Below, in pieces: positions 46,743 through 50,957 of a stretch of 64,000 bases of DNA (its first letter is position 1; each line of letters opens with the position of its first letter). Both the position numbers and the translations under genes were made by a program. The notes under the pieces are model-generated. The model saw only the letters and a list, made by a program, of their open reading frames with translations. It did no database searches and was not told where the DNA came from. Source of the DNA: Armatimonadota bacterium (GTDB taxonomy: Bacteria; Armatimonadota; HRBIN16); the NCBI GenBank assembly GCA_040289885.1, contig PSLZ01000002.1, positions 70,377-134,376 on the forward strand. Reading direction: 5' to 3'.

Positions 46743-47591
46743 CTAAGGCGCAAGGTTTAGCGACCTCTGGACACGAGGTGGAAGACCACTCTCCTGTCGC
46801 AAAACCCACACCACATCCCCGCGCCGTAGGTTGAAGGCTCGCGCCGCGCTCCCTTTGTTCACCGCAACCTCCAGCCGACCGCTACTGCCAAACAACGCCA
46901 ACGGCTGTCCGTCAGGAACATCGCCGTATGTCCGGCAGACCGGCAGGAATACCCCCGCTTTTGCCAGGCGGACCACCGGCTCCCGCACCTCCCACCGAAT
47001 GCGCCACTTCTCGTAATCGGCATATGTCAGGTTGGTGATGGCGTTGCCGAAGCGATCCAGATGCACGACGGTAGCGCGGATGCCCTGCCAATCCACCCGC
47101 ACGCGAGGCAGGCGCAGGCGGTTCAAGTGGGTCACCGGTGTGCCCAACTCTTCCAGACCCACCCCATTGGCAAGGTGTGCCGCAACGGGCGCGAAAATAT
47201 CCCTGCCGTGGAAGGTCGCGCTTTTCTCAGGCAGATGGTACTTCGAATTGTCCAACTGTACCGCCATGATCGCTCTGTATCGCTGTAATACCAGGGTGAA
47301 GATGCCGTTATCGGGACCTACGAACACCGCTCGGTCGGTTTGGATGGCGAGGGGTTTTCTCTGCGTGCCCACTCCCGGGTCCACCACCGCTACATGCACT
47401 GTCCTCGGTGGGAAGTAGTCCACCGAGACGTCCAGCAGAAACGCCCCTGTCATCACATCCTGTGGAGGCACCTCGTGTGTGAGGTCAATCACTACTGCTT
47501 GCGGACAAATAGAGGCGATAACCCCTTTCATCACTCCCACGTAGGTATCTTGCGTGCCGAAATCGGTTAGCAGGGTGATAACGCTGTTCAT
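46743..47591 (-). CDS. SAM hydrolase / SAM-dependent halogenase family (DUF62)
   Basis: ITLLTDFG..D, VVDPGVGT.R, GPDNG, TFHGRDIFAP, DRFGN, LEVAVN. Confidence 0.92.
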   Translation of the reverse strand: MNSVITLLTDFGTQDTYVGVMKGVIASICPQAVVIDLTHEVPPQDVMTGAFLLDVSVDYFPPRTVHVAVVDPGVGTQRKPLAIQTDRAVFVGPDNGIFTLVLQRYRAIMAVQLDNSKYHLPEKSATFHGRDIFAPVAAHLANGVGLEELGTPVTHLNRLRLPRVRVDWQGIRATVVHLDRFGNAITNLTYADYEKWRIRWEVREPVVRLAKAGVFLPVCRTYGDVPDGQPLALFGSSGRLEVAVNKGSAARAFNLRRGDVVWVLRQESGLPPRVQRSLNLAP

Positions 47592-47780
47592 AGTTACCAT
47601 GATAACAAAAACGCGTGCTCGGCGTCTATTATTTTGGATAAGGTAAGGAGGACTTGCGGAGGGATGTTGCCCGCCAGGTAGAACATCGTCGGCGCGCGCA
47701 CCTGCTGTCTCTCCGCAGTGTGGGTTGGCACTAGGGGGGAGCCTACGGTGCTCGCACCGAATAGATAAGGGAGCGACGCA

Positions 47781-48380
47781 ATGGATGCGCAAGTTTGGGA
47801 GTGGCGCGTGACAGCTGGAGAGCACCCCGGGCAAGACAGCGAACAGCAGCTCATAGAGCGTTGCCGCGCGGGCGACATGGAGGCTTTCGGCGTCCTGTGG
47901 CAGGAACACCGCTCCGCCGTGTTCCGTAGTATCCTGGGTATCGTAGGCAACCCCCAGGACGCCGAAGACCTGACGCAGGATGCCTTTTTGCGTGCCTATC
48001 GGGCACTGGGTAGCTTTCGCGGAGAGGCTCAACTGCGCACTTGGCTCATCCGTATCGGCGTGCACCTGGCGATTGACCACGTGAAGCGCAAAAAGGCGCA
48101 CCCCGAGGTGTCCCTCGATTGGGACGTCGGCGGGGCACATGCAGACATTGACCCACATACCGCAGCCGAGCGTAACGAACTGCGCGAAACAGTGCGCAAA
48201 GCGATAGATGCTCTGCCCGCGCATCATCGGGCGGTGATTGTGCTTCGCGACATCGAAGGGATGGACTACTCGGAGATGGCACAAGCGCTGGGATGCAGTG
48301 TCGGCAGTGTGAAACTGCGGCTGTTCCGGGCGCGCCGCCTGCTTAAACAGCGGCTGGAAGTGCTTTTGGAGGGATTGTGA
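47781..48380 (+). CDS. ECF RNA polymerase sigma factor
   Basis: DAEDLTQDAFLRAY...FRGEAQLRTWLIRI; LRDIEGMDYSEMAQALGCSVGSVKLRLFRAR. Confidence 0.93.
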   Translation: MDAQVWEWRVTAGEHPGQDSEQQLIERCRAGDMEAFGVLWQEHRSAVFRSILGIVGNPQDAEDLTQDAFLRAYRALGSFRGEAQLRTWLIRIGVHLAIDHVKRKKAHPEVSLDWDVGGAHADIDPHTAAERNELRETVRKAIDALPAHHRAVIVLRDIEGMDYSEMAQALGCSVGSVKLRLFRARRLLKQRLEVLLEGL

Positions 48381-49123
48381 TGAAGCGGCTACTGTGTCGA
48401 TTGGCGGGATACTACCTCGCGCTGTGCGAGGACGACATAGGGAACGGCTTGCCCGGCTGGGTAAGGCGACACCTGCACGTGTGCGCGCACTGTCAGGCGG
48501 AACTGCAGGCGTACCAGCGCACCAGCCAGACCATGCGCCAGTATGCAAGCCGCTTGCCCGACGCACCACCAACCGGATGGCGTCCACTGCAGGTGCGCGA
48601 GCACGCCAGGCGGAGCGCGTTTCCCCTACAGGTTGCGCTGGCACCCGCTCTGCTGGTGCTGCTGGCGCTAGTGGGAGGATGGGCGCTATGGCACAGCATC
48701 TCTCCACGCGCAGGCGATGTCCACGCGCCGCCCCAGATGGCGCAGGGGGTTCCTCAGCCGAAGTCGCCTTCCGCCCTGCTGGATAAAAAGCCGCAGTTCA
48801 CGTCGCCCGATAACGATAACCGCACCAAACCGGTGCCCGTCAGGCGCATCGTCCCACCCGCGACGCCCAAACCCAATCGCTCACCTCAGTACACGCCCCC
48901 GCCTGCTGGGCGACGCCCGCCAAAGCGCGTCTTGGTCGCTGTTCAACCAGCGCCATCAGCTGCCGCTCCTGCAGGCGAGCAGGCGACTGAAGAGCCGTCG
49001 CTGGAACCGCCGGTGCCCGTTCAGCCGGTGGTGGTGGAAGCGCACCCGGTGGCATCCGCTCCTATCCCGGAAGGCTACGTGATGGAGTCTGCCCGTCCTG
49101 CGACGACCGGCGCCATCGAGTAG
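48377..49123 (+). CDS. Zinc-binding (ZAS/zf-HC2) transmembrane anti-sigma factor
   Basis: HLHVCAHC (HxxxCxxC), a single TM helix, Pro-rich periplasmic tail; overlaps the sigma stop. Confidence 0.88.
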   Translation: MMKRLLCRLAGYYLALCEDDIGNGLPGWVRRHLHVCAHCQAELQAYQRTSQTMRQYASRLPDAPPTGWRPLQVREHARRSAFPLQVALAPALLVLLALVGGWALWHSISPRAGDVHAPPQMAQGVPQPKSPSALLDKKPQFTSPDNDNRTKPVPVRRIVPPATPKPNRSPQYTPPPAGRRPPKRVLVAVQPAPSAAAPAGEQATEEPSLEPPVPVQPVVVEAHPVASAPIPEGYVMESARPATTGAIE

Positions 49124-49136
49124 GAGGCGAACGCCT

Positions 49137-50267
49137 ATGCGTATCCTCATCACCCTCTGGTGTATCGTAGGGTTAGCCCTGTCGGCAAACGCGCAAGGAA
49201 CGCTGGAGTCGCTGGAGCGTGAGATCACCGCGTTGGCGCGAAAGGTTCAGGCTGGAGTGGTCTCCGTAGAAGGGGGCGCACTGGTCGTCCCCAACGCACC
49301 GCCGACCGTTCGCGCGGTACCACCACAGAGCGAAGCCGCCCGTCGCTGGCTGGAAGCCATGCGTTTGCTGAACTTGCCCAGCCCCGTGTCCCGCAAGGGA
49401 AGCGGTTTCATCATTGACCGCGACGGGTGGGTATTGACCAGCGCCGACATCGTGCGCGGGGCGGAAACCTGCACCGTACGGCTCGCCGATGGACAGCGGC
49501 TGAAAGCCCGCGTCGTCAGTATCGACGAGGTGACCAACCTCGCCCTAGTGAAATGCTCCGCTCCCACGCCTCAGCCGCTACCGCTGGGCGATTCCGACAA
49601 GGTGGACGTCGGCAATTTGGTGCTGTGCGTGGGCACTCTCGGCGGCTACGAACGCTCGGTGACGCTGGGGCTGGTATCTGGCAAGGAGCGCACGGGGGTG
49701 CTGGGACAGCGGCAGTTTCTATCCAATCTGCTGCAGGTCAGCGGGTCGGTAGGCGCAGGGGGTAGCGGTGCTCCGGTGGTCAACACACGGGGCGAAGTGG
49801 TGGGTATTATCATTGCCACCATCGCGCCGGGCATCGCGCTCCAGCCGCCGAGTGGAGAGGCAAGCACCTCCCCGCCCAGTTTGGGCACGTCGTTGGAGAT
49901 GTCGCTGTTCGGCTCGGCAGGAGGAGCGCTGGCGGTTCCCATTAACGACGTGCGAGCAGTGCTGGACGACATGCGTGCGGGCAAACTACGCCGTGCGTTT
50001 CTTGGCATCATGCCTGCTGACCGCGACGGCGGCGAAGGTGCCGAGGTGGTGCGGGTTGTGCCCAACAGTCCTGCCGCCCGTGCAGGCATCCGGCTAGGCG
50101 ATGTAATCGTCGCCATCAATCGGCTACCGGTGCGCCGCGCGAGTGACGTGAGCCTCATCCTGCGACGCATGAAGCCTGGTCAACGAGCGGAGATAGAAGT
50201 TCTGCGCGCAACCAACCGCCTCCGGCTCACCGTGCAGGTCGGAGAGCGAGGTTCCAGCGAACCATGA
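49137..50267 (+). CDS. HtrA/DegP-like trypsin plus PDZ protein, apparently catalytically inactive
   Basis: Signal peptide, GSGFII, LGDSD, PDZ (AFLGI, SPAARAGI..GDVI); triad positions read TSAD (His to Asp), TNLA (Asp to Asn), GGSGAP. Confidence 0.85.
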   Translation: MRILITLWCIVGLALSANAQGTLESLEREITALARKVQAGVVSVEGGALVVPNAPPTVRAVPPQSEAARRWLEAMRLLNLPSPVSRKGSGFIIDRDGWVLTSADIVRGAETCTVRLADGQRLKARVVSIDEVTNLALVKCSAPTPQPLPLGDSDKVDVGNLVLCVGTLGGYERSVTLGLVSGKERTGVLGQRQFLSNLLQVSGSVGAGGSGAPVVNTRGEVVGIIIATIAPGIALQPPSGEASTSPPSLGTSLEMSLFGSAGGALAVPINDVRAVLDDMRAGKLRRAFLGIMPADRDGGEGAEVVRVVPNSPAARAGIRLGDVIVAINRLPVRRASDVSLILRRMKPGQRAEIEVLRATNRLRLTVQVGERGSSEP

Positions 50268-50731
50268 CCTATCGAGTGCAAACCATCGGTTTCATCGAAG
50301 AGACGATCGCGCCTTCGTTTACCCTGCCATCGGCTCACGACGGCAAGCCGGTATCCCTCTACTCCTTCCGCCAGCGTCAGCCGGTTGCTCTGCTGTTTGT
50401 GCCGTGGTCGGCGCATGGGCCTCTTGTCCTCGCACAGGTCGAAGCCCTACTACCCGGGTTCCTCGACGCCGGCGCCGCCGTCCTGTTGGTTACCCGCGAA
50501 CCGATAACGGACGCTCCCGCGGTGCCTCTGGTGCTGGTAGACCGTGACGGACAGGTGTTTCGGCGATATGAATGCCACTCTCAGAGCGATCTCTGTTTGT
50601 TCGGGCTGGACCGCTACGGAGCGGTAATCCATCAGGCCGCCTGTCGCGTGGAGCAGTTGGGAGCCAGCCTGCGTGCCCTGCTGGACGCCATCGAGTTCTC
50701 CGAGCGTCAGTGCCCCGAGTGAGGGGTATAA
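50264..50731 (+). CDS. Thioredoxin-fold (AhpC/TSA-like) protein with C-terminal CxxU motif; probable selenoprotein
   Basis: APSFTLPS..DGKPVSL..F, LVDRDG, LDRYG Prx-like motifs; ends CAG TGC CCC GAG TGA GGG GTA TAA = QCPE-U-GV-stop. Ends at 50722 if the UGA is a true stop. Confidence 0.75.
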
Positions 50732-50764
50732 CCACCGCGCCGGTCGGCGTGGAGGAAACACCCC
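50723..50764 (+). promoter_or_regulatory. Bacterial SECIS-like hairpin
   Basis: Lower stem GGGGU/ACCCC directly after the UGA; upper stem CCGCGCC/GGCGUGG with a GGUC apical loop starting 19 nt after the UGA. Confidence 0.65.
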
Positions 50765-50780
50765 TTGCACTCGTCGGGGG

Positions 50781-50957
50781 TTATTTCCCCGCCGCGGCGA
50801 GCATCACGCCATAGAAGTCGACAACCACCACCGGCTCGTCGCCTACCACCTAGGCATCATGCCCGGCGGGGATCAGCGAGACATCGCCCGGGCGACACTC
50901 CAGCTCCGTGCCGTCATCCATCTGTACTTTCAGAACGCCCGACACGTGGCGATATAC
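50781..50957 (-). pseudogene. 3' remnant of a cupin-domain gene
   Basis: HVSGVLKVQMDDGTELECRPGDVSLIPAGHDA*VVGDEPVVVVDF: TAG where this cupin family has GHDAWVVG; 5' part missing. Confidence 0.7.

Follow-up and report, generated by a model that had tools for sequence, protein, structure and literature searches.

A conserved three-gene unit of extracytoplasmic function sigma factor, predicted anti-sigma factor and HtrA-like pseudoprotease in Armatimonadota

The known periplasmic guards of anti-sigma factors come from few unrelated folds. In the RpoE-RseA-RseB system of E. coli and the AlgU-MucA-MucB(-MucD) system of Pseudomonas, a sigma factor of the extracytoplasmic function (ECF) type and a single-pass anti-sigma factor are accompanied by a periplasmic third gene product, and DegS-type PDZ domains bind C-terminal residues (PMC8103513). 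In Pseudomonas, the signalling domain of FoxA binds the C-terminal part of the anti-sigma factor FoxR and shields it from proteolysis (PMC11637429). Here we describe a related locus in an Armatimonadota bacterium, located in a window of 64,000 nucleotides (nt) of contig PSLZ01000002.1 (assembly GCA_040289885.1, positions 70,377 to 134,376), from a genome that is 99.9% complete. It encodes an ECF sigma factor, a predicted anti-sigma factor, an HtrA-like protein with a degenerate catalytic triad and a predicted selenoprotein, and the four genes are co-oriented and overlapping or 13 bp apart, as an earlier note on this sequence had described.

The conserved unit consists of three of these genes, not four. 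The sigma factor, anti-sigma and pseudoprotease genes are adjacent in 18/18 genomes of the window's family. For the rest of the phylum, a wider profile of the dead HtrA was scanned over 351 genomes, and the 40 top-scoring loci outside the family were taken (35 from the ranking and five from an earlier search of the phylum). Thirty-five of these loci, in 30 genomes of five families, encode proteins without the catalytic His, and 33 of them have an ECF sigma gene upstream, while contig ends truncate the other two. Of the five remaining loci, whose His-Asp-Ser triad (H-D-S) is intact, none has such an upstream sigma gene. This gives at least 48 genomes in six families, counted in a ranked sample in which some large families had no match at that threshold. 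Conservation of the four-gene order across the phylum, which the earlier note had named as a check, holds for these three genes, whereas the selenoprotein is restricted to one genus. A confinement of the pseudoprotease to one family was also considered, and was overturned by the further His-less proteins adjoining sigma genes across the phylum.

The HtrA-like protein (49137..50267, + strand, 13 bp downstream of the anti-sigma stop) matches Trypsin_2 and PDZ in Pfam, and its predicted model has the HtrA fold, with Foldseek matches to Deg1, DegP, DegS and MucD. The N-terminus is signal-peptide-like, and the single PDZ domain has an intact carboxylate-binding loop (RAFLGI). Judged by its sequence, the protein thus has the trypsin-like and PDZ domains of the HtrA/DegP (S1C) group and lacks the triad: in an alignment to solved HtrAs and to four paralogs of the source genome, all H-D-S intact, the His, Asp and Ser sites correspond to D104, N134 and S210. 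The "dead HtrA-PDZ" of the earlier note is therefore right for the lost His and Asp, but the catalytic Ser is retained. His is absent in 18/18 orthologs of the window's family, which show D-N-S in 13 cases, Pro at the Ser site in three and Thr in two. Among all 53 dead HtrAs, His is found in 0/53, Asp or Glu occupies its site in 47, Asn the Asp site in 41, and Ser is retained in 45; the combination D/E-N-S is present in 41/53, alongside a retained Gly-x-Ser-Gly. The Ser site holds Pro or Thr in 8/53 and the His site Ser, Gly or Asn in 6/53, the gene order being unchanged at those loci. The gene is under purifying selection (ratio of nonsynonymous to synonymous substitution rates 0.12-0.27, 10 pairs from five genes), and family-specific invariants surround the cleft, for example Gly203 in 36/36 dead proteins versus Ala in 6/6 active enzymes. 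In a quick tree, dead and active HtrAs are split by one branch (SH-aLRT, an approximate likelihood-ratio test, of 100); after trimming, nine dead rows were less than half occupied, and the entry of one active database protein (P0131) was mislabelled and incomplete, so the triad counts were drawn from separate alignments and not from the tree. Protein searches with the dead HtrA return Armatimonadota-type members first and then ordinary HtrAs, and generic HtrA clusters in the Atlas. The family is mis-annotated, since its members are named "serine protease Do" or "MucD" in databases. An additional trypsin-like open reading frame (ORF) adjoins an intact HtrA in the source genome (contig C67:25649-26632), and its His-site region appears degenerate by eye.

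The predicted anti-sigma gene (48377..49123, + strand, with a start at 48377 or 48380) overlaps the sigma stop and encodes a protein with a zinc-type motif, one hydrophobic helix at about residues 84-103 (hydropathy) and a Pro-rich tail. Its N-terminus reads Cx24HxxxCxxC, and a zinc site is predicted because C6, H31, C35 and C38 are invariant in 18/18 family orthologs. With C/H...HxxxCxxC next to an ECF gene, it has the motif expected of a zinc-binding anti-sigma (ZAS, class I) factor, as the earlier note had proposed, but Pfam zf-HC2 has no match to the window protein and only a weak one in 2/18 orthologs. At the dead-HtrA loci of other families, C...HxxxCxxC and a hydrophobic helix are present in 33/34 assessable upstream genes. 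Redox sensitivity of the predicted zinc site cannot be read off the motif.

The anti-sigma tail is long and little conserved in the alignment apart from a region near its end, where a YVM-type motif is conserved. Outside the window's family, 33/33 anti-sigmas end in W/Y/F/L/M and 27/33 in W/Y/F, against a C-terminal background of 15% and 7%, respectively, in 2015 ORFs of the source genome. The pattern [YF][VILA][MIVL] occurs in the last 35 residues of 35/51 anti-sigmas versus 8/150 control windows elsewhere in the tails, the motif having been defined after inspection of the data and the related sequences not being independent. PDZ ligands likewise end in such residues. A complex prediction for the pseudoprotease (residues 20-376) with the tail (170-247) scored 0.10 against a mark of 0.32 and was weighed neither way.

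From these features it seems somewhat probable that the HtrA-PDZ protein acts in the periplasm without catalysis, as a partner that would hold the tail of the anti-sigma and control its proteolysis when the envelope is stressed. Such a role, a periplasmic sensor or adaptor for the tail, had been suggested in the earlier note and is strengthened indirectly by the synteny in six families, the purifying selection and the PDZ-ligand-like ends, although the contact itself is inferred. The protein would work like RseB without belonging to that family, having instead an HtrA fold with an incomplete triad. In the proposed mechanism, the anti-sigma would hold the sigma factor at the membrane and its disordered tail would dock on the pseudoprotease, with the hydrophobic C-terminal residue in the PDZ pocket and the strand of the YVM-type motif lying in the inactive substrate cleft. 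Envelope peptides exposed by stress would displace the tail, after which an active protease could cut the anti-sigma (four intact HtrAs and RseP are encoded), and the freed sigma factor would transcribe its own operon and probably also outer-membrane and surface biogenesis genes. The selenoprotein would be a genus-level addition and no more than one of the operon's outputs. More tentatively, the unit might be a phylum-wide envelope-stress switch with an inverted DegS logic, in which the anti-sigma's C-terminus, similar to that of an outer-membrane protein, is held by a dead HtrA and unfolded envelope proteins switch the sigma factor on by competing for the PDZ pocket and cleft; the dead HtrA would then be the first HtrA pseudoprotease to serve as sensor of a sigma pathway.

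The third position is occupied by other proteins in related operons. In related sigma operons, including a paralog in the source genome, the third gene product has an STN domain, and in some pseudoproteases the C-terminus carries a domain like FecR_C/STN (weak match, E 5e-4); these occurrences suggest that the third-gene slot fits an anti-sigma partner, since an anti-sigma in Pseudomonas is protected by a domain of the STN type (PMC11637429). The paralogous operon on contig C12 (L276:1362-3593, - strand) encodes an ECF sigma factor, an anti-sigma with a zinc motif and a secreted protein with STN and zinc-ribbon domains, and similar trios are found in other families (L339, L341). A second operon of ECF sigma factor, zf-HC2 anti-sigma and HtrA is present on contig C28:11752-14464 (L272); its HtrA has an intact triad and two PDZ domains and is a candidate for the system's site-1 protease or for an effector of it. 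Several genomes of two families (f7 and f26, loci L373-L407) hold two copies of the sigma, anti-sigma and dead HtrA genes. One copy shows mostly E-N-S, a Tyr-ending anti-sigma and the promoter motif described below, and the other D-N-S, a Trp-ending anti-sigma and mostly no promoter motif.

The sigma gene (47781..48380, + strand) encodes 199 amino acids with Sigma70_r2 and r4_2 domains (Pfam, NCBIfam), with a protein identity of 88-92% within the genus and 44-50% to sister genera. The RpoE equivalog model TIGR02939 gives 138 bits, below its cut-off of 236. Region 4 reads SVKLRLFRAR, with Leu at the site where most other ECFs of the source genome have Ser. Neither Armatimonad* nor trypsin is mentioned in the main text of the ECF-group paper (Casas-Pastor 2021, PMC7826278). 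An autoregulatory ECF promoter, GATAAC-N16-CGTCTA, is predicted at 47601..47628 (+ strand) from motif conservation: GRTAAC-N16-CGTCTR is found 87-249 nt upstream of the sigma start in 18/18 family genomes with differing upstream contexts, and TAAC-N16/17-CGTC precedes the sigma gene at 16/31 assessable loci of other families, where 0.3 would be expected from shuffles. The latter motif also precedes 3/27 other ECF genes, all three encoding a hydrophobic residue at the region-4 Leu position, and 0/20 genes for Ser-type sigmas, the rows of this comparison being related.

In the source genome, 12 copies of AAC-N17-CGTCTAA lie outside coding sequence and one within it, with at most two occurrences for other spacers. 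A weight-matrix scan with the spacer fixed at 16 nt found little besides the sigma factor's own site, and a spacer of 17 nt revealed a candidate regulon. An exact site precedes an LptC/LptA-like gene in 10/13 genomes of the genus, and further sites precede genes for a LolA-like protein, a BamB-like pyrroloquinoline quinone (PQQ) propeller and a serpin lipoprotein, as well as pilM and ruvB (source genome and 3/3 relatives checked). The LptC/LptA-like gene (contig C11:16949-18277, L153) encodes a membrane-anchored protein of 443 amino acids with LptC and LptA/LptD_N matches, and is present in 18/18 family genomes; it would be nearly leaderless, because its start lies 11 nt past the -10 element. 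None of the 12 annotated promoter targets (of 18 intergenic matches) is a thiol-redox gene, and the candidate regulon points to the envelope rather than to thiol redox. The source genome also encodes RseP and two Omp85 proteins, both ending in Phe. The conserved motif before the sigma gene and before envelope genes would fit an autoregulated envelope regulon, but these sites might also be recognised by further ECFs, and assignment of the set to the window sigma is uncertain.

The region between promoter and sigma gene includes a leader (47700-47780, + strand) of which about 70 nt are near-invariant in 13 genomes of the genus, above the flanking DNA; it is possibly a regulatory leader or a second promoter. 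No Rfam match was obtained over 47560-50900, leader included, the leader folds no better than shuffles (z = -1.0), and a sigma-70 promoter scan gave none on the + strand. A gene for an S-adenosylmethionine (SAM) hydroxide adenosyltransferase (46743-47600, - strand) is divergent from the sigma gene in 13/13 genomes of the genus and not in sister genera; the start region of this gene and the -35 element of the ECF promoter overlap.

The fourth gene (50264..50731, + strand, 155 amino acids) overlaps the HtrA-like stop by ATGA, and its ORF runs to an in-frame UGA at 50720-50722; with the UGA read through, as CPE-TGA-GV-TAA, it extends to 50731. A hairpin of the selenocysteine insertion sequence (SECIS) type lies at 50721..50766 (+ strand), mostly 3' of the stop codon, with an apical stem-loop at 50735-50752 (loop GGUC). 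The hairpin has z = -4.2, reached by 0/200 shuffles, and its loop begins with GG 19 nt from the UGA, within the 16-37 nt consensus of PMC13188914. CPE-TGA-G[VI]-stop and the same hairpin are conserved in 9/10 orthologs; the tenth has TGC and no hairpin, and its genome still has selB. The apical stem is paired in 69/70 cells over 10 selenocysteine (Sec) alleles, with one compensatory and two wobble pairs, a level that 15/500 shuffles reach and slid controls do not, relatedness limiting the weight of this test. The source genome encodes tRNA-Sec together with selA, selB and selD, the last of which has an in-frame TGA of its own. The UGA aligned to Cys, the SECIS-type hairpin and selA/selB/selC/selD make the prediction of a selenoprotein well supported. 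The Sec part of the "CxxU selenoprotein" of the earlier note stands, but CxxU is at the extreme C-terminus and not at a thioredoxin or peroxidatic position.

The predicted fold of this protein is that of AhpC and BCP/peroxiredoxins, with the CPEU-GV tail after the last helix; no conserved Cys was found at the start of the first helix (peroxidatic PxxxTxxC/U) or at the thioredoxin position. No NCBIfam model reached a cut-off-level score for 26 members of the CPEU family. A recognisable entry with this motif position is missing from Table 1 of PMC13188914, where AhpC-type selenoproteins have other motifs, and no CPEU, CPEUG or CPECG selenoprotein was found in the literature, a point on which the BSepDB family table of PMC13326102 may bear. 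Database copies are truncated at the UGA in 20/22 cases. Distant full-length homologs occur in 28/388 sampled genomes outside the genus; the 20 inspected have Cys in 17 and TGA in three, all three in one other family. A second lineage of Sec-type CPEU proteins, in another family (L046, L128, L135), reads CPE-U-G-x-x-V-E-W-A-stop, with a predicted hairpin within the coding tail.

Within the genus, the selenoprotein gene adjoins the module in 10/12 other genomes; in one of the others the contig ends early, and in one 98%-complete genome the intact module runs directly to the next gene. The ATGA overlap is present in 11/11 genomes with the selenoprotein at the locus, and co-transcription with the module in this genus is likely from this arrangement. 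Beside the module, the gene is found in 0/5 genomes of two sister genera and 0/40 loci of other families. Homologs elsewhere have unrelated, varied contexts (40/68 neighbouring ORFs scanned), and one of 20 distant homologs lies near an ECF, on the opposite strand. The earlier note had suggested that the redoxin could reset the anti-sigma HxxxCxxC site, and had named a lack of synteny in relatives as grounds for refutation; with the gene beside the module in a single genus, this redox reset has no support.

Several points weigh against the pseudoprotease being a partner of the anti-sigma in an envelope-stress pathway. The tail motif was chosen after the fact as said above, and the window's own family lacks the PDZ-ligand-like end, since 15/18 of its anti-sigmas, including those of the window's genus, end in Glu. 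An HtrA gene in a sigma operon may simply encode an effector, as in rseA-htrA (PMC10027907). Because Ser is mostly kept (45/53) and an acidic residue mostly replaces His (47/53), we can only infer that the protein is inactive. As for the regulon, the promoter motif is absent at 15/31 assessable loci outside the family, the LptC/A site is absent in 5/5 sister-genus genomes, and the spacer is 17 nt at most target sites but 16 nt at the window sigma's own site. Moreover, the paralogous C12 ECF has its own CGTAAC-N17-CGTCTTA site (4/4 genomes), and two more ECFs have AAC-type sites, one in the operon with the active HtrA and another elsewhere.

HtrAs have chaperone activity, and the pseudoprotease could be a chaperone-only effector of the sigma response that never contacts the anti-sigma, which we hold to be unlikely. 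Sigma operons are known to include HtrA/MucD genes (PMC10027907), and the source genome itself has the operon of sigma, zf-HC2 anti-sigma and active HtrA in the same layout. However, an effector leaves unexplained the hydrophobic anti-sigma ends (33/33 outside the family) with their common tail motif, and the sigma linkage of every assessable dead HtrA. Still less probable, in our view, is that the protein is not inert, Asp/Glu-Asn-Ser forming a non-canonical centre that cuts the anti-sigma, or the protein activating an intact HtrA. Catalysis by a trypsin fold drops by orders of magnitude without His and Asp. D/E-N-S in 41/53 with Gly-x-Ser-Gly would agree with this reading, as would the four intact HtrAs of the genome and the precedent of MamO, which activates MamE (PMC4794232), but the changes of Ser to Pro/Thr (8/53) and of the His site to Ser/Gly/Asn (6/53) occur in the same gene order.

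A four-part module, in which the Sec protein reduces or resets the zinc-thiolate site of the anti-sigma, forming in this genus at least a switch that joins envelope and redox control, we regard as very unlikely. The ATGA coupling in 11/11 genomes and the cytoplasm-facing position predicted for both selenoprotein and zinc site would fit it, and the RseA of Mycobacterium is redox-regulated (PMC10027907). Against it stand the loci without the selenoprotein (those of one genome of the genus and 5/5 sister-genus genomes, and 40/40 others), the unrelated contexts of its homologs (the single one near an ECF being on the opposite strand) and the 0/12 thiol-redox genes among annotated promoter targets.

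If the pseudoprotease is indeed a periplasmic partner of the anti-sigma, this HtrA without catalysis, kept beside the same sigma factor in at least six families, would be a stress protease turned receptor. It would also provide a first testable model of envelope-stress signalling for Armatimonadota, for which a literature search on sigma factors and the envelope turned up no publication. The CPEU protein apparently represents a selenoprotein family not yet catalogued, with an AhpC fold, CPEU at the C-terminus and a SECIS past the stop, and its Cys allele without hairpin is a natural control for a SECIS acting from the 3' untranslated region. No description of this gene combination was found in the literature, where the ECF-group supplements of PMC7826278 could already note a trypsin-PDZ neighbour.

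Compared with known systems, the selenoprotein shares the AhpC/BCP fold with AhpC-TSA selenoproteins, and with SaoC a Sec near the C-terminus and a SECIS past the stop, as proposed there (bioRxiv 2022.07.06.499078); unlike these, it has no peroxidatic motif, and its CxxU is a C-terminal tail. The three-gene unit resembles the RpoE and AlgU systems in its layout, in the candidate outer-membrane biogenesis regulon and in the RseP-type protease encoded. It differs in that the third gene encodes an HtrA-fold pseudoprotease instead of RseB/MucB, no Pfam or NCBIfam match to that family being found among the four proteins, and in the zinc-type motif of the anti-sigma. MucD, a homolog of the window's protein in the alignment, has protease activity and differs in its intact His. 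The mycobacterial sigE-rseA-htrA locus has the same order of sigma factor, Cys/His anti-sigma and HtrA, but its HtrA is described as a serine protease, whereas the window's lacks His and Asp, and its RseA is a cytoplasmic protein under the control of redox, PknB and ClpC1P2, whereas the window's anti-sigma has a membrane helix and a long tail (PMC10027907). Bacterial HtrA-type pseudoproteases kept for non-catalytic roles are exemplified by MamO and inactive MamE duplicates, although these belong to a magnetosome context of metal binding and MamE activation, with no sigma or anti-sigma factor (PMC4794232), and the MamO model matches the window protein weakly (39 bits, cut-off 800). In FoxA/FoxR, finally, the partner is a domain of a TonB-dependent receptor and the anti-sigma is FecR-type; the likeness lies in a periplasmic partner of the anti-sigma, with STN/FecR_C-like domains in the third-gene slot of the related operons described here.

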